DNA of 64,000 nucleotides, from assembly GCF_044324875.1 (NCBI RefSeq), contig NZ_CP172185.1, one strand, 5' to 3'. Position numbers and translations under genes: made by a program. Below the pieces are notes generated by a model, which had not been told where the DNA came from, searched no databases, and worked only from the letters and a program-made list of their open reading frames with translations. Shown piece by piece: positions 46,580 through 62,481 of the stretch. This DNA is from Escherichia coli (GTDB lineage Bacteria; Pseudomonadota; Gammaproteobacteria; Enterobacterales; Enterobacteriaceae). How positions within the stretch are numbered: position 1 is the stretch's first letter; each line of letters starts with the position of its first letter.

Positions 46580-46720
46580 AACGGGAAAGCCCCTCCCGAG
46601 GAAGGGGCCTTAAATAAGGAAAGGGTCATGATGAAGTGGATCATCATCGTGGTGCTCTTAGTGATTAGCTACCCAGCATACTAAGACTACCAGGGCGGGG
46701 GAAACCCCGCTCTACCCTCA
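46580..46720 (-). ncRNA. Putative Sib antisense sRNA, copy 1 (antitoxin of the overlapping ibs)
   Basis: Minus-strand promoter ttgaca-17-tacttt (weaker -10 than copies 2 and 3); terminator hairpin gcccct...aggggc then tttcccgttt; boundaries approximate. Confidence 0.45.
46628..46684 (+). CDS. Ibs-family small hydrophobic toxin, variant MMKWIIIVVLLVISYPAY (copy 1)
   Basis: 18-codon ORF at the same position in the repeat unit as the other two ibs genes. Confidence 0.6.
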   Translation: MMKWIIIVVLLVISYPAY

Positions 46721-46907
46721 CTCCTGAAAGTATGCCTTCACGATAAGATTGTCAATCTGCAGGCTTTGCAGTCTGCGATCCTGCCAGCAAATATTCTTTG
46801 CGAGACGTTACGCAATAATCACACTGGAAACTATTTTATCCGCAAGTCAGCGATAGACTGCATACAGGGCGAAAGGAGGTAAGTCGACGATTTCAGCGGG
46901 ACGCTGA

Positions 46908-47048
46908 AACGGGAAAGCCCCTCCCGAGGAAGGGGCCTTAAATAAGGAAAGGGTCATGATGAAGCTACTCATCATCGTGGTGCTCTTAGTCATAAGCTTC
47001 CCCGCTTACTAAGACTACCAGGGCGGGGGAAACCCCGCTCTACCCTCA
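46908..47048 (-). ncRNA. sibB: Putative Sib antisense sRNA, copy 2 (SibB-like)
   Basis: Minus-strand promoter ttgaca-17-taattt (-35 at 47078-47083, -10 at 47055-47060); terminator hairpin 46917-46936; boundaries approximate. Confidence 0.55.
46956..47012 (+). CDS. ibsB: Ibs-family small toxin MMKLLIIVVLLVISFPAY (IbsB-like)
   Basis: 18-codon ORF; matches my recollection of IbsB. Confidence 0.65.
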   Translation: MMKLLIIVVLLVISFPAY

Positions 47049-47237
47049 CTCCTGAAATTATGCCTTCACGATAAGATTGTCAATCCGCAGGCTTTGCAGT
47101 CTGCGATCCTGCCAGCAAATATTCTTTGCGAGTCGTTACGCAATAATCACAGAGGAAACTATTTTGTTCACGCGTTAGCGATAGACTGCATTCAGGGCGA
47201 AAGGAGGTAAGCCGACGATTTCAGCGGGACGCTGAAA

Positions 47238-47383
47238 CGGGAAACCCTCTCCCGGAGAAGAGGGCTTTTAATAAGGAAAGGGTTATGATGAAGCACGTCA
47301 TCATACTGGTGATACTCTTAGTGATTAGCTTCCAGGCTTACTAAGAACACCAGGGGGAGGGGGAAACCTCTCCCTAACCCTCA
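47238..47383 (-). ncRNA. sibA: Putative Sib antisense sRNA, copy 3 (SibA-like)
   Basis: Minus-strand promoter ttgaca-17-taattt (-35 at 47413-47418, -10 at 47390-47395); terminator hairpin ccctct...agaggg then tttcccgttt; boundaries approximate. Confidence 0.55.
47285..47344 (+). CDS. ibsA: Ibs-family small toxin MMKHVIILVILLVISFQAY (IbsA-like)
   Basis: 19-codon ORF. Confidence 0.65.
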   Translation: MMKHVIILVILLVISFQAY

Positions 47384-47564
47384 CTCCTGAAATTATGTCA
47401 CTCCGCCCTTAGTGTCAATCGACGGCTCTCCGTTCTTGCGAGGCGAATAGCAAAATTTTCTGCGCCGCCGGGCCTAATTCTGAAAGTTGCTTTGCCTGCT
47501 CATATTTCATTGTTGCAGTCGGTATGATACCGGACCTCAATAATTCTCTAAGAAAGGATTTCTT

Positions 47565-48224
47565 ATGAGCGAACAAATCACGTTTGCCACCAGCGATTTT
47601 GCCAGTAACCCGGAACCACGTTGCCCCTGCATTTTGCTGCTGGATGTTTCTGGTTCTATGAACGGTAGACCCATTAATGAACTTAACGCCGGATTGGTTA
47701 CCTTTCGCGATGAGCTGCTTGCCGATTCGCTGGCCTTAAAAAGAGTGGAACTCGGTATTGTGACGTTCGGCCCGGTGCATGTGGAACAACCCTTTACCAG
47801 CGCCGCTAATTTTTTCCCGCCCATCCTGTTTGCCCAGGGCGATACACCAATGGGGGCCGCCATTACCAAAGCCCTGGATATGGTTGAGGAGCGCAAACGT
47901 GAGTATCGCGCCAATGGTATTTCCTATTATCGCCCGTGGATTTTCCTGATCACCGATGGCGCTCCAACCGATGAGTGGCAGGCTGCCGCCAACAAAGTGT
48001 TTCAGGGGGAAGAAGATAAGAAGTTTGCCTTCTTTTCCATCGGTGTTCAGGGGGCGGATATGAAGACTTTGGCACAAATCAGCGTTCGTCAGCCTTTGCC
48101 ACTGCAGGGATTACAATTCCGTGAACTGTTTAGCTGGTTATCCAGTTCGCTGCGTTCGGTTTCCCGCTCCACGCCGGGAACGGAAGTTGTGCTGGAAGCG
48201 CCAAAAGGCTGGACGTCAGTGTGA
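47565..48224 (+). CDS. yegL: von Willebrand factor A (TerY-like) domain protein
   Basis: 219-aa ORF; MIDAS-type motif [11 protein letters not shown] near N-terminus; stop overlaps yegK start. Confidence 0.85.
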
Positions 48225-48982
48225 GCTGGCGTCTGGTCTATGCATCAACCGTTGGAACGTCGCACATCAGCGCGGACTTGCCTTGCCAGGATGCCTGCCA
48301 GATGCAGGTTGCCTGGTTAAATGACCAGCAGCCATTATTGTCGGTATTTGTCGCTGATGGCGCAGGCAGCGTCTCGCAGGGTGGCGAAGGTGCGATGCTC
48401 GCCGTCAATGAAGCGATGGCTTATATGTCGCAAAAAGTGCAGGGCGGGGAATTGGGGCTTAATGATGTCCTCGCAACGGACATTGTGCTGACCATTCGTC
48501 AGCGACTTTTTGCCGAGGCGGAAGCCAAAGAATTAGCGGTTCGCGATTTTGCCTGCACGTTTTTGGGATTGATTTCATCAGCTAATGGCACCTTGATTAT
48601 GCAGATTGGCGATGGCGGCGTGGTGGTAGATTTGGGTCACGGTCTGCAATTGCCTCTCACGCCGATGGTGGGTGAATATGCCAACATGACGCACTTCATT
48701 ACCGATGACGATGCTGTTTCCAGACTGGAAACTTACACCAGCACTGGGCGTGCGCATAAAGTTGCAGCATTTACGGATGGTATCCAGCGACTGGCGTTAA
48801 ATATGCTGGATAATTCTCCTCATGTGCCTTTCTTTACCCCGTTTTTCAATGGACTGGCGTCAGCAACGCAGGAACAACTCGATTTATTACCTGAATTGTT
48901 AAAGCAGTTTTTGTCCAGCCCGGCGGTAAACGAGCGTACGGATGATGATAAAACGTTGGCACTGGCGCTGTGGTTACCATGA
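48221..48982 (+). CDS. yegK: PP2C-family Ser/Thr protein phosphatase
   Basis: 253-aa ORF from GTG (GTGA overlap with yegL stop); acidic metal-binding residues typical of PP2C (VADGAG...DGGVV...FTDG). Confidence 0.8.
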
Positions 48983-50919
48983 AACCCACTTTATATACTG
49001 CTACTGGTGAGTGCGTTACGCCAGGCCGTGAACTGGGAAAAGGTGGCGAAGGCGCGGTTTATGATATCGAGGAGTTTGTCGATAGCGTCGCCAAGATTTA
49101 TCACACGCCGCCACCCGCCTTAAAACAGGACAAACTTGCCTTTATGGCTGCGACAGCTGACGCGCAATTGTTGAATTATGTCGCCTGGCCGCAGGCAACG
49201 CTTCACGGTGGACGAGGCGGAAAGGTTATCGGTTTTATGATGCCAAAAGTTTCTGGTAAAGAACCGATTCATATGATCTATAGCCCGGCACATCGTCGCC
49301 AACGTTACCCTCATTGTGCGTGGGATTTTCTACTCTATGTTGCGCGCAATATTGCTTCATCTTTTGCTACGGTTCACGAGCACGGGCATGTCGTGGGTGA
49401 CGTAAACCAGAACAGCTTTATGGTAGGCCGTGACAGCAAAGTGGTGTTGATTGATAGCGACTCCTTTCAGATTAACGCCAATGGCACGCTGCATTTATGC
49501 GAAGTCGGCGTGTCGCATTTTACGCCGCCAGAGCTGCAAACCTTGCCATCATTTGTCGGCTTTGAACGCACCGCGAATCACGATAATTTTGGCCTTGCGT
49601 TGCTGATTTTTCACGTCTTGTTTGGTGGGCGGCATCCTTATTCCGGTGTAACGCTTGTCTCTGATGCGGGTAATGCACTGGAGACGGATATTGCCCATTT
49701 CCGTTATGCCTACGCGTCAGATAATCAGCGACGTGGTTTAAAACCGCCGCCACGATCTATTCCGCTGTCGATGTTACCGGGCGATGTTGAAACCATGTTT
49801 CAGCAGGCATTCACGGAAAGTGGCGTGGCAACCGGGCGTCCGACGGCAAAAGCGTGGGTTGCGGCACTTGATTTACTACGCCAACAGTTAAAGAAATGTA
49901 CCGTTTCGGCAATGCATGTTTACCCCGGTCATTTGACTGACTGCCCGTGGTGTGCGCTGGATAATCAAGGCGTTATCTATTTTATTGATCTCGGCGAAGA
50001 GGTCATTACCACCAGCGGTGATTTTGTGCTGGCGAAAGTCTGGGCGATGGTGATGGCGTCAGTAGCACCGCCAGCATTGCAACTGCCATTACCCGATCAT
50101 TTCCAACTGACTGGCAGGCCGCTTCCTTTAGGCCTGTTACGGCGCGAATACATCATTCTGATTGAGATCGCACTGTCAGCGTTATCGCTGTTGCTTTGCG
50201 GCCTTCAGGCAGAACCGCGTTATATTATTTTGGTTCCTGTGCTGGCGGCTATCTGGATTATTGGCAGCCTGACAAGCAAAGCGTACAAAGCAGAAATCCA
50301 GCAACGCCGTGAGGCGTTTAATCGCGCGAAAATGGACTATGACCATTTAGTCAGCCAGATCCAACGGTTGGGCGGGCTGGAAGGTTTTATCGCCAAACGG
50401 ACGATGCTCGAAAAAATGAAGGACGAAATTCTTGGGTTACCGGAAGAAGAAAAGCGCGATCTGGCAGCACTTCAGGACACCGCAAGGGAACGGCAGAAGC
50501 AGAAGTTTCTGGAGGGATTTTTTATTGATGTTGCCTCTATTCCCGGCGTTGGCCCTGCGCGTAAAGCGGCGTTACGGTCCTTTGGTATTGAAACGGCGGC
50601 AGACGTTACCCGACGGAGCGTTAAGCAAGTTAGAGGTTTTGGTGATCATCTGACCCAGGCGGTTATCGACTGGAAAGCGAGTTGCGAACGCCGTTTTGTT
50701 TTCAGGCCGAACGAAGCGGTAACGCCTGCAGACAGACAAGCGGTAATGGCAAAAATGGCCGCCAAACGACATCGGCTGGAATCGACGTTGACTGTCGGTG
50801 CGACAGAGTTGCAGCGATTCCGCCTTCATGCTCCAGCACGGACCATGCCGTTGATGGAACCGTTACGTCAGGCGGCAGAAAAACTGGCTCAGGCGCAGGC
50901 AGATTTAAGCCGCTGCTGA
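48970..50919 (+). CDS. yegI: Membrane-anchored Ser/Thr protein kinase-like protein with C-terminal helix-hairpin-helix region
   Basis: 649-aa ORF overlapping yegK by 13 nt; N-terminal kinase-like region (GKGGEGAVYDI, HGHVVGDVNQNSFMV, LIDSDSFQ), two hydrophobic segments, C-terminal IPGVGPARKAALRSFGIETAADV (HhH-like). Confidence 0.8.
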   Translation: MVTMKPTLYTATGECVTPGRELGKGGEGAVYDIEEFVDSVAKIYHTPPPALKQDKLAFMAATADAQLLNYVAWPQATLHGGRGGKVIGFMMPKVSGKEPIHMIYSPAHRRQRYPHCAWDFLLYVARNIASSFATVHEHGHVVGDVNQNSFMVGRDSKVVLIDSDSFQINANGTLHLCEVGVSHFTPPELQTLPSFVGFERTANHDNFGLALLIFHVLFGGRHPYSGVTLVSDAGNALETDIAHFRYAYASDNQRRGLKPPPRSIPLSMLPGDVETMFQQAFTESGVATGRPTAKAWVAALDLLRQQLKKCTVSAMHVYPGHLTDCPWCALDNQGVIYFIDLGEEVITTSGDFVLAKVWAMVMASVAPPALQLPLPDHFQLTGRPLPLGLLRREYIILIEIALSALSLLLCGLQAEPRYIILVPVLAAIWIIGSLTSKAYKAEIQQRREAFNRAKMDYDHLVSQIQRLGGLEGFIAKRTMLEKMKDEILGLPEEEKRDLAALQDTARERQKQKFLEGFFIDVASIPGVGPARKAALRSFGIETAADVTRRSVKQVRGFGDHLTQAVIDWKASCERRFVFRPNEAVTPADRQAVMAKMAAKRHRLESTLTVGATELQRFRLHAPARTMPLMEPLRQAAEKLAQAQADLSRC

Positions 50920-50931
50920 GCCATTTTTCAA

Positions 50932-52284
50932 TTAACGAAACACCACTTCCGCCCAGCGTGCCAGCCCGGCGGTGACGGAGCCAAAGTCATCGCCGCCTGC
51001 AATCGGAATGCCCGGCAACTGTTCTGCCAGCGCTTTTTTAATCAGCGGTGAACGGGCGCTACCGCCGGTCAGATAGATAACATCCGGTTTTTCCTGGGCG
51101 TTATCCAGCGCCAGTTGCACCTGTTCCAGAATCCGCGCCAGTGGCTGGTTGAGGGCGCTTTCCAGCCCTTGCTGGCTAATCAGCGTAGCCAGTTCATCGC
51201 TGATAAACGGCAGTGAGGCGCGGGTTTCCGCTACGCTTGAAAGCGCAATTTTGCTCTCTTCTGCGCTACGTACCAGGCGATAGCTTAAACGCTGACGCCA
51301 GACTTTCTGTAACAGGGCCACTTTTTCCGGTTCGCGGGCATCGCGTACCAGATCGTTAAGCAGACGACCGTTGGCACTACTGTAGAAATCACTTTGCGCA
51401 GGTACGTCGTTGATGGCAACCGCATTCCACCACGGCAGAATCGGCAGGGCGATGCCTTTTTCGGTTTCGCCACCCATGCCCAGTAACGGCATCAGGTTTT
51501 TAAACGCCAGTGCGATATCCAGATCGTTACCGCCAATACGGCAACCACTGTGACCCAGCAGGCTGGCTTCACGATCGAGACGCGAACGCCACTGCGGCCC
51601 CATCAGCAGCAATGAACAGTCAGTCGTACCACCGCCGATATCCACCACCAGCACCCGTTTTTCTTCCTGCAAGGTGGCTTCGTAATCCAGCCCAGCCGCG
51701 ACCGGCTCGTACTGGAATACCACATCCTTAAACCCGGCACGCTTCGCCGCGCGTTCCAGAATCCCCTGCGCCTGGGTGTTTGCTTCATCGCCGCCCAGCC
51801 CCTGGAAGTTGATAGGGCGACCAATCACCGCCTGAGTAATCGCTTCTGGCAGCTGTGCCTGCGCCTGCTGGCGAATGTGCAACATCATTGCGCAGACCAG
51901 ATCCTCAAACAGCGCTACCTGCTGCGGTTTTAAGCCGCTGGCACCGAGGAACGATTTTGGTGATTTCACAAACCACACTTCTTCTGGATCATCAATGTAC
52001 TGTGCCAGTGAGGAAAGACCGAACTGCACGCTTTTCGCCGTAACATCGATATATTCTTCGCGGTTATAACGAATCGCCCGACGCAGCAGCGCCTGCGTTT
52101 CATCGTCGTCTGCCGGAACATCATGATGGCGGTACAGCCATTCGCTTACCGCTTCACGCGTTGGCGCGCAAAGCATTGAAGGCAGCAGCGTGCTGTCGTT
52201 TTCCATTTTCAGTAATTGCGGCTTACCGTCGCGCATGACCGCCACTGAACAGTTTGCTGTACCGTAATCAAAACCAATAAACAC
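50932..52284 (-). CDS. yegD: Hsp70-family (actin-fold) ATPase YegD
   Basis: ORF 50932..52347; start taken at GTG giving (M)FIGFDYGTANCSVAVMRDGKP, which aligns with the DnaK N-terminal phosphate-1 motif; 450 aa. Confidence 0.85.
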   Translation of the reverse strand: MFIGFDYGTANCSVAVMRDGKPQLLKMENDSTLLPSMLCAPTREAVSEWLYRHHDVPADDDETQALLRRAIRYNREEYIDVTAKSVQFGLSSLAQYIDDPEEVWFVKSPKSFLGASGLKPQQVALFEDLVCAMMLHIRQQAQAQLPEAITQAVIGRPINFQGLGGDEANTQAQGILERAAKRAGFKDVVFQYEPVAAGLDYEATLQEEKRVLVVDIGGGTTDCSLLLMGPQWRSRLDREASLLGHSGCRIGGNDLDIALAFKNLMPLLGMGGETEKGIALPILPWWNAVAINDVPAQSDFYSSANGRLLNDLVRDAREPEKVALLQKVWRQRLSYRLVRSAEESKIALSSVAETRASLPFISDELATLISQQGLESALNQPLARILEQVQLALDNAQEKPDVIYLTGGSARSPLIKKALAEQLPGIPIAGGDDFGSVTAGLARWAEVVFR

Positions 52285-60429: not shown

Positions 60430-62013
60430 TCACACCTCGTACTCCATCTCGCTATCCTTACGCAGCGGTATAATCTGCACCTTCTGCACGCGATGGCTTT
60501 CCACCTGCAACGTTTTAAGCAAATAATCCCCCACCTGAACTTCTTCGCCAGGTTTTGGAATACGCTGCAAATATTCCATCAGCAGCCCGGCAATGGTGTG
60601 ATATTCGCGTTTCTCATCCAGCGGTAGCGGCACATATTGCACCAGATCTTCCAGTGGCATATGACCATTCGCCGTCCAGGAACCGTCGGCGTTTTTCTGA
60701 ATATCATGGCGGGCGTCGATCTCTTCCACTTCGTTCGGCAAGTTACCGGCAATAGTTTCCGTGACGTCACTTAATGTCACAATCCCTTCCACCGAGCCAA
60801 ACTCATCCACTACAAAAGCAAAGTGCGTGCGGGCATTACGGAACTGCTCCAGGGCAGGTAACAACGGCAAGGTTTCCGGGAACACCAGCGGCTGGCGAAT
60901 CAACACCCGCAGGTTGAGCGGTTCGCCGCGCAGAGACTGTTGTAGCAGGTCGATAACGTGAACAACACCGAGCAAATCTTCTGCGTCATCACCGTCGGTA
61001 ACCACCAACCGCGTATGCTGATTTCGCTCCAGCAACTGGCGGATTTCTTCTTCCGGCGCGTTGAGATCGATATGCTCAATATCGTGGCGCGACGTCATAA
61101 TGCTGCTGACGGTACGCTGGTTAAGATTAAGTACCCGCTCAATCATCCGCCGTTCCTGCGGATTAAAGATCTGCTGGTTACCATGATCCACCAGCATGGA
61201 CGCGGTTTCGGCGTCCAGTTCCGCATCTTCTTTTTGCCCGCTAAGCAGGCGCATTACCGCTTCGGTAGTCCGCTGGCGCAGCGTCTGGTTAGCGGAAAGA
61301 AAACGTCGCCGGTTAAAGATAGCCAACTGATTGAGCGCCTCGATCATCACCGAGAAACCAATAGCAGCGTACAGGTAGCCTTTCGGAATGACGAAGCCGA
61401 AACCTTCTGCCACCAGGCTAAAGCCAATCATCAACAGGAAGCTTAAGCAGAGAATAACGATCGTCGGGTGACTGTTAACAAATTGCGTTAACGGCTTGCT
61501 GGCCATCAACATCAGGCTAATAGCGATAACGACGGCGGCCATCATGACCAGTAAATGGTCGACCATCCCGACGGCGGTAATCACCGAGTCGAGTGAGAAG
61601 ATGGCGTCCAGTACCACAATTTGTGTCACCACCCCCCAGAACTTCGCACCTTTGCGTTGCGTGGGGTTATTGCTGTCTTTCCCTTCCAGCCGTTCGTTCA
61701 GCTCCATCGTGGCTTTGAACAGCAGGAAGAAACCACCAAACAGCATGATTAAGTCGCGGGCGCTAAAGGTAAACGAGCGAAAGCTGAATAGCGGTTGTGT
61801 CAGGGTGACCAGCCAGGAGATTGACGCCAGCAGTAACAGGCGCATTAACATCGCCAGCAGCAGCCCGGTAACCCGTGCGCGGTCGCGCTGCTTCGGCGGT
61901 AGTTTTTCGGCGAGGATGGCAATAAAGACCAGGTTATCAATGCCGAGGACCAGTTCGATCACAATCAGCGTGATTAACCCGGCCCAGATAGACGGATCGG
62001 CAATCCATTCCAT
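60430..62013 (-). CDS. yegH: Inner membrane protein YegH (TerC-like membrane domain, CBS pair, CorC/HlyC-type C-terminus)
   Basis: ORF 60430..62079; start taken at [34 protein letters not shown] (527 aa); domain assignment from memory. Confidence 0.8.
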
Positions 62014-62481
62014 AGTAAGTACAAAACCTATTCGTTGTATGACAAATGTCACAATTCGATCATGGATAAATCGGGGCAAAAATGCAATGTTGCAGCACTA
62101 TTTATCTCATATTATTTGAGGGTAATAACCTCACATTATCCCTGAATTAAAAGTGGTAATAATAAAATATTATTTAAGAAATATCGCATGTGGAGACGCA
62201 ATATTAAATATTGTCAACCTAAAGAAACTCCTAAAAACCATATTGAATGACACTTAATATAATTCTTAAAAATAGCCAATTGCCGAATTGTTACCTTGCC
62301 TGCTATTCCGTTAGCTGTAACACTTCCTCCTGCATTATTGGAGAGCCAATATTCAATTACCATAATGTCACCTTATATTCGGAAGTTAATTTCCGTAATA
62401 ACCCTTTCTCATCAACGACTGCATGCTGAGAGGGTGTGAAAAATTAAACTAAATCAGTGTATTGGTAGCTAAAAAGCCAGG

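Follow-up and report, generated by a model that had tools for sequence, protein, structure and literature searches.

TerY-P triads combine a TerY-like vWA protein, a PP2C phosphatase and a Ser/Thr kinase with a C-terminal zinc ribbon, as set out in PMC11090510 and PMC4978471, from which the family definition of Anantharaman, Iyer & Aravind (2012) is taken here second-hand. They have been described as a hypothesised metal-sensing switch, and TerY-P systems are protective against T7-like phages. In the stand-alone system validated against phage (Gao et al. 2020) the kinase carries an oligonucleotide/oligosaccharide-binding (OB) fold in place of the zinc ribbon, while a Pseudomonas aeruginosa variant that both PADLOC and DefenseFinder miss protects against Autographiviridae with no collapse of the culture (Costa et al. 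2024). Here, we analysed a 64,000-nucleotide stretch of the Escherichia coli contig NZ_CP172185.1 (the window), within which three consecutive genes, yegL, pphC (yegK) and yegI, represent, on the E. coli chromosome, a compact TerY-P-type cassette that is both mobile and strictly conserved. Among the closest systems known are the TerY-P triads of the tellurite-resistance (ter) cluster and of Type II/III-A CoCoNuT systems.

The yegL-pphC-yegI triad and the ter-cluster triad

Open reading frames (ORFs), Pfam matches and structural comparison agree on a vWA/PP2C/kinase triad, as the original prediction, an earlier reading of the window, had proposed. The TerY-P-like architecture that it assigned to these genes was borne out when all three proteins were compared directly with the canonical triad, a homology test that is new here. 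On the IncHI2 tellurite-resistance plasmid the genes run TerW, vWA, TerD, vWA, TerY+TerY-C, PP2C, kinase, so that the triad has the same components in the same order as in E. coli, and each Yeg protein is homologous to its counterpart. YegL aligns with the TerY/TerY-C protein over 188 amino acids, C-terminal tail included (BLASTP, 28% identity, E=2e-20), and across BLASTP and tblastn its identity to ter-plasmid TerY proteins is 28-36%, with E up to 1e-10 (tblastn); the two vWA proteins have a W-x-[ST]-x-S...S-R-S tail in common. PphC is 25% identical to the ter-cluster PP2C (E=7e-5), and residues 202-338 of YegI, which span the C-lobe and the CPxC zinc-ribbon segment, are 23% identical to the ter-cluster kinase (E=1e-6). 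The differences lie in added or missing parts: YegL lacks the metal-binding TerY-C extension, PphC has 253 residues where the ter-cluster PP2C has 545, and in YegI the zinc ribbon is followed by an additional membrane hairpin, coiled coil and putative (HhH)2-like module. Unlike the ter and CoCoNuT triads, the E. coli copy is linked neither to ter genes nor to McrBC/CoCoNuT or other DNA-processing modules.

YegL matches the Pfam VWA family (E=2e-9) and, as had been claimed, has a complete metal ion-dependent adhesion site (MIDAS), the five residues of which (D27-x-S29-x-S31, T94 and D131) do not vary among 46 relatives (46/46). The C-terminal tail, W-L-S-x-S...S-R-S, is invariant in the same 46, and conservation across phyla is 90% or more at about 95 of the 219 positions. 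This very high conservation, together with the strict co-inheritance of the three genes, argues for direct physical coupling, with YegL as a probable obligate third partner.

The two enzymes have been characterised biochemically. YegI is an active Ser/Thr kinase that prefers Mn2+ and requires K39, D141 and the DSD loop; it autophosphorylates on activation-loop serines (S153, S160 and S162) with second-order kinetics, and PphC, an active Mn2+-dependent PP2C, removes those phosphates (Rajagopalan & Dworkin). In keeping with this, PphC matches Pfam PP2C_2 (E=1e-51), and its metal-binding Asp residues (D24, D46, D131, D186 and D241-243) are invariant among relatives. E. coli YegI has no Pfam Pkinase match of its own; the family is matched by 63 of its 78 relatives. 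An AlphaFold model built on the 78-sequence alignment reached a pLDDT score (predicted local distance difference test) of 93, and Foldseek placed the kinase domains of PknA, PknB and BRAF among the top matches to the N-terminal 300 residues (template modelling (TM) score 0.64-0.74), as expected from the kinase fold that had been proposed. Residues K39, D141, N143, D159, D161 and S162 are invariant in the 78 relatives, the catalytic loop has the atypical form VGDxxQxS, and DSD replaces DFG. YegI thus lacks the canonical Hanks motifs HRDxxxxN and DFG and keeps seven of the ten invariant residues, and is active nonetheless. The original prediction, which had called YegI a membrane-anchored, kinase-like protein with an HhH region, was right about the anchor and the HhH region but understated the enzyme. 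Sequence searches of the PDB returned no close solved relative of YegL, PphC or YegI, and a profile of the YegI family retrieved generic kinases only.

Known Hanks-type kinase/PP2C pairs, such as PknB-PstP, PrkC-PrpC and PpkA-PppA, resemble YegI/PphC in the bilobal kinase fold and in activation-loop autophosphorylation that is reversed by a co-encoded PP2C. YegI differs from these kinases in its atypical catalytic and DSD loops and in lacking an extracytoplasmic sensor, its C-terminal module being cytoplasmic and HhH-like, and the YegI/PphC pair differs in its obligate linkage with a vWA gene.

Beyond the kinase domain of YegI, and directly after it, lie C307, H313, C322 and C325, which are invariant across the family alignment and align with the CPxC region of the ter-cluster kinase. 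In the AlphaFold model this segment (residues ~303-330) forms two short strands and a helix, which together with the four ligand-type residues fits a predicted zinc ribbon; this conserved, putative zinc-ribbon-like element is new here. Further along, the published PhoA-LacZ topology of YegI has two passes through the inner membrane, with both termini in the cytoplasm (Rajagopalan & Dworkin). The linker beyond them is modelled as long helices (415-465, 467-485, 487-500 and 502-512) and leads into residues ~515-575, where two Gly-hydrophobic-Gly motifs are found and a GIGPxRK/GFG motif is conserved in the family. This region matches Pfam HHH_5 with E=1e-3 in E. coli YegI; among the 78 relatives, 2 reach E<=1e-3 and 25 reach E<=0.1. 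When residues 500-646 were modelled in isolation (pLDDT 92), the top Foldseek matches were all (HhH)2 modules, none of them significant (E>=0.2), and included the N-terminal domain of Rad51/RadA, the HhH of the Y-family polymerase thumb, DisA and Hjm. The HhH call is weak on each of these measures; DNA binding by the (HhH)2-like module is likely but unproven. The long helix that ends the protein reappears in the isolated model (its residues 84-146) and is possibly a dimerisation element; dimer formation by YegI would be consistent with the published second-order kinetics of autophosphorylation.

Judged by sequence, then, yegL-pphC-yegI is a TerY-P-type triad in the comparative-genomics sense, with a MIDAS-bearing vWA protein, an adjacent PP2C and, encoded by the third gene, a kinase that is followed by a predicted zinc ribbon. 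Linkage to ter, DNA-processing or restriction genes is absent at the E. coli locus; restriction or other defence genes occur near relatives in 7 of 17 contexts (see below). The triad is not a member of the validated TerY-P defence subfamily, which is a different one. The cassette resembles the system of Gao et al. (2020) in being a self-contained set of vWA, PP2C and kinase, but where that kinase carries an OB fold, the C-terminal half of YegI is all helical in the models, with a hairpin, helices and the (HhH)2-like module; in addition, the E. coli triad is core rather than accessory. The statement that TerY-P is among experimentally validated anti-phage systems is thus supported by the literature, but the validation does not automatically transfer to this locus.

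PADLOC profiles (PADLOC-DB v2), suggested earlier as a check, gave no significant TerY-P match: the best was YegL against the TerY model PDLC02224 (E=0.013, 13 bits), and PphC and YegI had none. The canonical ter-cluster triad, used as a control, likewise fails these hidden Markov models, which are therefore narrow, so that the negative is not decisive. New here is the observation that neither the canonical ter triad nor the YegLKI branch is picked up by the TerY-P models of PADLOC, and the variant of Costa et al. (2024) provides a precedent for triads that tools miss and that can nevertheless defend. A search with the sequencing primers of this P. aeruginosa variant, aimed at whether it belongs to the YegLKI family, matched nothing in two scans of metagenomes or in one of viruses.

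Distribution, transfer and maintenance of the cassette

A search with the 6-kb locus matched 5423 of 5426 complete E. coli genomes, and yegL, pphC, yegI and yegD were annotated in every matching genome that was sampled. Beyond the species, the YegI family comprises 3200 clusters (50% identity) at E<1e-30, more than 150 of which keep the full-length architecture of ~645 amino acids. A GTDB scan with one genome per species confirmed at least 526 YegI relatives, distributed over Proteobacteria, Actinobacteria, Acidobacteria, Chlorobi, Cyanobacteria, Synergistetes, Clostridiales and Methanoregula archaea; the best 80 loci were analysed further. The 71 loci with enough upstream sequence come from Proteobacteria, Actinobacteria, Acidobacteria, Cyanobacteria, Clostridiales and Methanoregula; by strict criteria 66 of them keep the vWA, PP2C and kinase genes in this order on one strand, and 70 do if over-extended ORF starts are allowed for. 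Conservation of this order between loci so distant rules out a chance association. Clustering of the ORFs that flank the 80 loci revealed no conserved fourth gene, only lineage-restricted synteny and generic families.

The sequences also point to horizontal movement of the cassette. E. coli YegI is ~60% identical to proteins of Burkholderiales and Chromobacterium; among the best 80 of the at least 526 loci, enterobacteria are represented only by Escherichia and Klebsiella spallanzanii, to which a protein search added a Klebsiella aerogenes homologue; and some members of the family are plasmid-borne, in Pseudomonas, Cupriavidus, Rhizobium and others. Together these data suggest horizontal transfer, with acquisition by an ancestor of Escherichia. 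The strict conservation of the cassette combined with its mobility is, like the lack of support for a partnership with YegD that is described below, a new observation. Carriage of the triad by phages was considered as well and rejected, with one weak partial match in 50,697 phage records.

Within Escherichia, ratios of nonsynonymous to synonymous substitution rates (dN/dS), calculated for the window against strain Ch1, K-12 and cryptic-clade Escherichia, were 0.02-0.08 for yegL, 0.09-0.22 for pphC and 0.16-0.18 for yegI. Flanking core genes gave 0.01-0.08 (mdtA), 0.15-0.25 (alkA) and 0.02-0.09 (yegD, in four comparisons; the value against Ch1, 0.32, rests on very few substitutions). All three triad genes are thus under purifying selection, somewhat relaxed in pphC and yegI and not diversifying; diversifying selection as the cause of the 92% identity reported between PphC of K and B strains was rejected on these values (<=0.22), which indicate a relaxed-purifying regime. 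This selection, together with the presence of the locus in nearly all complete genomes, implies that the triad is maintained.

The locus is also polymorphic. In K-12-type strains a 725-bp insertion of 38% GC, carrying yegJ on the opposite strand, lies between pphC and yegI (L002:5256-5980, corresponding to the window junction 48979-48982); it changes the end of PphC from ALWLP to ALWAE and replaces the first ~18 codons of yegI, so that the N-terminus of K-12 YegI differs. The arrangement is uninterrupted in the window, as it is in many pathogens and in B strains. According to a 2026 paper, YegJ is a binding partner of RNase E and strongly induces yegD when overexpressed. In two cryptic-clade Escherichia drafts the yegI frame is truncated, to 462 and 519 amino acids (L013:8671-10059 and L014:4500-6059), and pphC of E. 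coli E69 (L035) has indels and an identity of just 81%; pseudogenes or errors of assembly could account for these cases. A scan for promoters and terminators found no site upstream of yegL, and the frequency of sites across the locus was not above that in shuffled sequence. In the long-term evolution experiment, as published, a mutation in yegI became fixed early on, which fits a cost of carrying an active kinase.

Candidate roles of the proposed phospho-switch

How might such a cassette operate? We infer that YegL, PphC and YegI work as one phospho-switch, in which membrane-tethered YegI would sense a DNA event at the inner membrane through the (HhH)2 module and the coiled coil; the module, carried on a probably dimeric helical stalk, would detect DNA on the inner side of the membrane. 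Candidate triggers are DNA damage and DNA that enters from a phage or plasmid; such an event might bring about YegI dimerisation and trans-autophosphorylation, while PphC would keep the switch off and reset it. The MIDAS metal site of YegL could bind a phospho-ligand or an acidic one, presented by the kinase or by a target, or the invariant C-terminal serines of YegL could themselves be the substrate. The output would be directed at the phage life cycle or at DNA metabolism. Overproduction of YegL or of YegI, each independently, has been reported to increase endogenous DNA damage, which suggests that the output touches DNA metabolism. On this scheme the cassette, acquired by the Escherichia ancestor, would now be fixed and kept almost silent in the laboratory. 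A role in defence or in DNA stress is plausible, though unproven; more specifically, we tentatively favour a conflict or stress module with anti-phage or anti-mobile-element activity, giving this reading a little less than an even chance.

A survey of 17 independent annotated contexts outside Escherichia bears on this role. In raw counts, with no matched control, defence genes lie within <=8 kb of the triad in 7 of the 17, five contexts are mobile, toxin-antitoxin-rich or plasmid-borne, and five are housekeeping. The defence contexts are those of Piscinibacter (Schlafen-like helicase, ScoMcrA-like, BrxR and JetB), Chromobacterium (AbiH, KAP NTPase and a Tn7-like element), K. spallanzanii (GmrSD and type I restriction-modification (RM)), a metagenome contig (type I RM and Mrr), a Sphingobium plasmid (AbiEii and GIY-YIG), a Rhizobium rhizogenes plasmid (a Gabija-like pair of OLD nuclease and UvrD, together with DUF262) and Georgenia (McrBC). 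These neighbourhoods are suggestive, not compelling.

Several findings weigh against a defensive role. Ten of the 17 contexts have no recognised defence genes, five of these being the housekeeping ones, and on Pseudomonas megaplasmids the neighbours of the triad are RNase HII and umuDC-like genes. In E. coli the three genes are fixed core genes in a housekeeping region, which is unusual for defence systems, and they give no significant PADLOC match. Among the papers searched, none links yegL, pphC or yegI to phage, no phage, stress or substrate phenotype has been reported for the E. coli genes, and published expression of the YegI/PphC locus is hardly detectable. In addition, the HhH assignment in YegI, on which DNA sensing would depend, falls below threshold with both Pfam and Foldseek.

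In a rival reading, YegI and PphC would be an endogenous signalling pair rather than an immune system and would phospho-regulate host proteins, for example in stationary-phase exit or in DNA damage and repair, with YegL as a regulatory subunit or substrate. The core status of the triad, which practically every E. coli carries next to alkA in a housekeeping neighbourhood, the purifying selection on it, the DNA damage that follows overproduction, published weak stationary-phase expression, and plasmid neighbours such as umuDC-like genes, RNase HII or an SOS-response-associated peptidase are all in line with such a pair. A patchy phyletic pattern shaped by horizontal transfer is not, however, nor is a self-contained cassette that frequently sits in defence or mobile islands and travels without a conserved host partner, and no YegI substrate has been reported; we regard this reading as possible but doubtful. 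It is improbable, on the other hand, that the triad is a Ter-type sensor of metal or xenobiotic stress, in which the YegL MIDAS and the Mn2+ enzymes would respond to divalent metals or to tellurite-like stress. That idea draws on the homology of all three proteins to the IncHI2 triad, the invariant MIDAS, the preference of both enzymes for Mn2+, the published hypothesis of a metal-sensing switch, first put forward for TerY-P triads of ter operons, and the TerC-family gene yegH ~8 kb away; yet neither terZABCDE nor TerD adjoins the triad in E. coli or in the 17 contexts outside the ter plasmid, no ter-like family recurs in the flanks of the best 80 GTDB loci, and unrelated core genes separate yegH from the triad.

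The near silence of the locus could alternatively mark a relic in E. coli, horizontally acquired, transcriptionally silent and decaying. The lack of a promoter-like site upstream of yegL, the low-GC yegJ insertion that splits pphC from yegI in K-12, the truncated yegI of the two cryptic-clade drafts and the yegI mutation selected in the long-term evolution experiment can all be read in this way, but a decaying cassette would hardly display dN/dS values of 0.02-0.22, comparable to or only moderately above those of flanking core genes, intact and annotated genes in every genome sampled from the 5423, unimpaired catalytic, MIDAS and zinc-binding residues, and two enzymes active in vitro, so that we consider a relic very unlikely. 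Even slimmer is the chance that the Hsp70-like YegD acts as a fourth component, substrate or chaperone partner, an idea raised by the original prediction. The convergent genes with 12 bp between their stops, the strong induction of yegD by YegJ overexpression and a membrane J-domain protein in the same convergent position in Burkholderiaceae would suit a partnership. Comparison across genomes, however, lends it no support: YegD homologues flank the triad in 3 of the best 80 loci, all of them Escherichia, the other contexts examined contain no Hsp70-like gene, only one lineage has the J-domain pair, and genes that converge cannot share a transcript. A conserved partnership with YegD was accordingly rejected.

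Extending the favoured reading of a conflict or stress module, YegLKI may constitute a distinct and widespread branch of TerY-P, present in more than 500 bacterial species and in Methanoregula, in which a membrane kinase with an (HhH)2 DNA sensor serves as a stand-alone anti-phage or anti-plasmid system that tools miss; the E. coli copy, including that of K-12 and B laboratory strains, would be a silent, domesticated core gene set, and the DUF4236 proteins and the small ORF/SNase pair described below would be accessory effectors. This bolder proposal is speculative and, taken as a whole, rather unlikely to be right.

The genes of the triad, their enzyme activities and architecture, and the yegJ polymorphism were known before, from publications and annotation. 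In the COG database YegL goes by the name 'TerY-type vWA' and YegI by 'protein kinase with HhH domains'. YegI/PphC is the only known pair of Hanks-type kinase and PP2C in E. coli, and its placement among TerY-P-type triads turns the question of what YegI does into specific, testable hypotheses. If the defence role is true, the best-studied bacterium has an immune module in its core genome and there is a branch of TerY-P invisible to the PADLOC models; without such a role, the locus is an ordinary, already annotated gene cluster.

Gene junctions, feature coordinates and neighbouring genes

Direct reading upheld the GTGA overlap predicted for yegL and yegK (GTG 48221-48223, TGA 48222-48224). Two candidate starts for yegI, GTG 48970 and ATG 48979, would give overlaps with pphC of 13 and 4 nt, respectively. 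The 13-nt overlap reported earlier comes from the longest-ORF start and was not sustained: the N-termini of distant homologues align to the ATG, which is also the start in the RefSeq/PGAP annotation of the closest genome and in Rajagopalan & Dworkin (646 amino acids), and the accepted start is therefore ATG 48979, with an ATGA overlap. The two stops, TGA 50917-50919 for yegI and 50932-50934 on the minus strand for yegD, leave the 12-bp spacer that had been described. The triad is flanked by the mdtABCD-baeSR efflux operon and by yegD-alkA-dgcE, and all features are collected in Table 1.

Table 1 Features of the triad and its surroundings, with positions in the window
Feature	Position	Strand	Description or evidence
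SIB_RNA gene	46613-46755	-	Rfam
ibs ORF	46628-46684	+	upstream of yegL
SIB_RNA gene	46941-47083	-	Rfam
ibs ORF	46956-47012	+	upstream of yegL
SIB_RNA gene	47270-47418	-	Rfam
ibs ORF	47285-47344	+	upstream of yegL
yegL	47565..48224	+	ORF of 219 aa; stand-alone TerY-type vWA protein
pphC (yegK)	48221..48982	+	ORF of 253 aa; PP2C-type Ser/Thr phosphatase; GTG start
yegI, longest-ORF form	48970..50919	+	in-frame GTG start, 649 aa
yegI	48979..50919	+	646-aa inner-membrane Ser/Thr kinase; ATG start
YegI kinase domain, ~aa 1-300	48979..49878	+	Foldseek, invariant catalytic residues
YegI zinc-ribbon-like element (predicted), ~aa 303-330	49885..49968	+	C307, H313, C322, C325
YegI transmembrane hairpin, ~aa 389-436	50143..50286	+	two hydrophobic model helices, published topology
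YegI cytoplasmic helical/coiled-coil linker (modelled), ~aa 437-512	50287..50514	+	model
YegI (HhH)2-like putative DNA-binding module, ~aa 515-575	50521..50703	+	Pfam HHH_5, G-h-G motifs
YegI C-terminal helix (modelled), ~60 residues	50725..50913	+	model helix 583-645
yegD	50932..52284	-	Hsp70/actin-fold protein; NCBIfam PRK11678, 805 bits
yegH	60430-62079	-	TerC-family membrane protein, ~8 kb past yegD

The genes alkA, dgcE, udk, dcd and asmA separate yegH from yegD; TerC is a part of the Ter system, and no evidence of a link between yegH and the triad was seen. Elsewhere, the pQBR103-type Pseudomonas megaplasmids (L094-L096) place the triad between a umuD/umuC-like pair (S24 peptidase and Y-family polymerase) and RNase HII, HU and TraR, with a second, unrelated HhH-domain protein of ~740 amino acids 7 kb from the triad.

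Proteins with the rare DUF4236 N-terminal domain are encoded ~0-3.5 kb from YegLKI-type triads in at least seven independent loci (L010-12, L021, L030/L102, L042, L049, L053/L069 and L091/L106), a raw count with no background rate. A DUF4236 protein is also encoded directly upstream of the terW/TerY genes in the IncHI2 ter cluster (L093:4813-6021), and none in the E. coli window. In several relatives an ORF of 69-70 amino acids, followed by a staphylococcal-nuclease (SNase) gene on the same strand, lies directly upstream of the vWA gene (L003:5719-6474, L010:5700-6501 and L016:8155-8481); the two together could be an accessory effector. In Burkholderiaceae, a convergent pair directly after the kinase gene encodes a secreted Cys-repeat protein (~300 amino acids) and a membrane J-domain protein (~500 amino acids) (L104:10983-13402, L097:7865-10251 and L058/L059), in the position and orientation of E. 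coli yegD; as a likeness between two lineages only, this may be coincidence.

In E. coli, sib/ibs type I toxin-antitoxin modules occupy the position of the SNase pair. The expanded array noted earlier beside the triad was recovered by Rfam as three SIB_RNA copies, so that the window has three modules in tandem where the K-12 site has two ibs genes. Strain Ch1, the best match to the window (98.8%), has three sib/ibs modules as well, which indicates that their copy number varies between strains.

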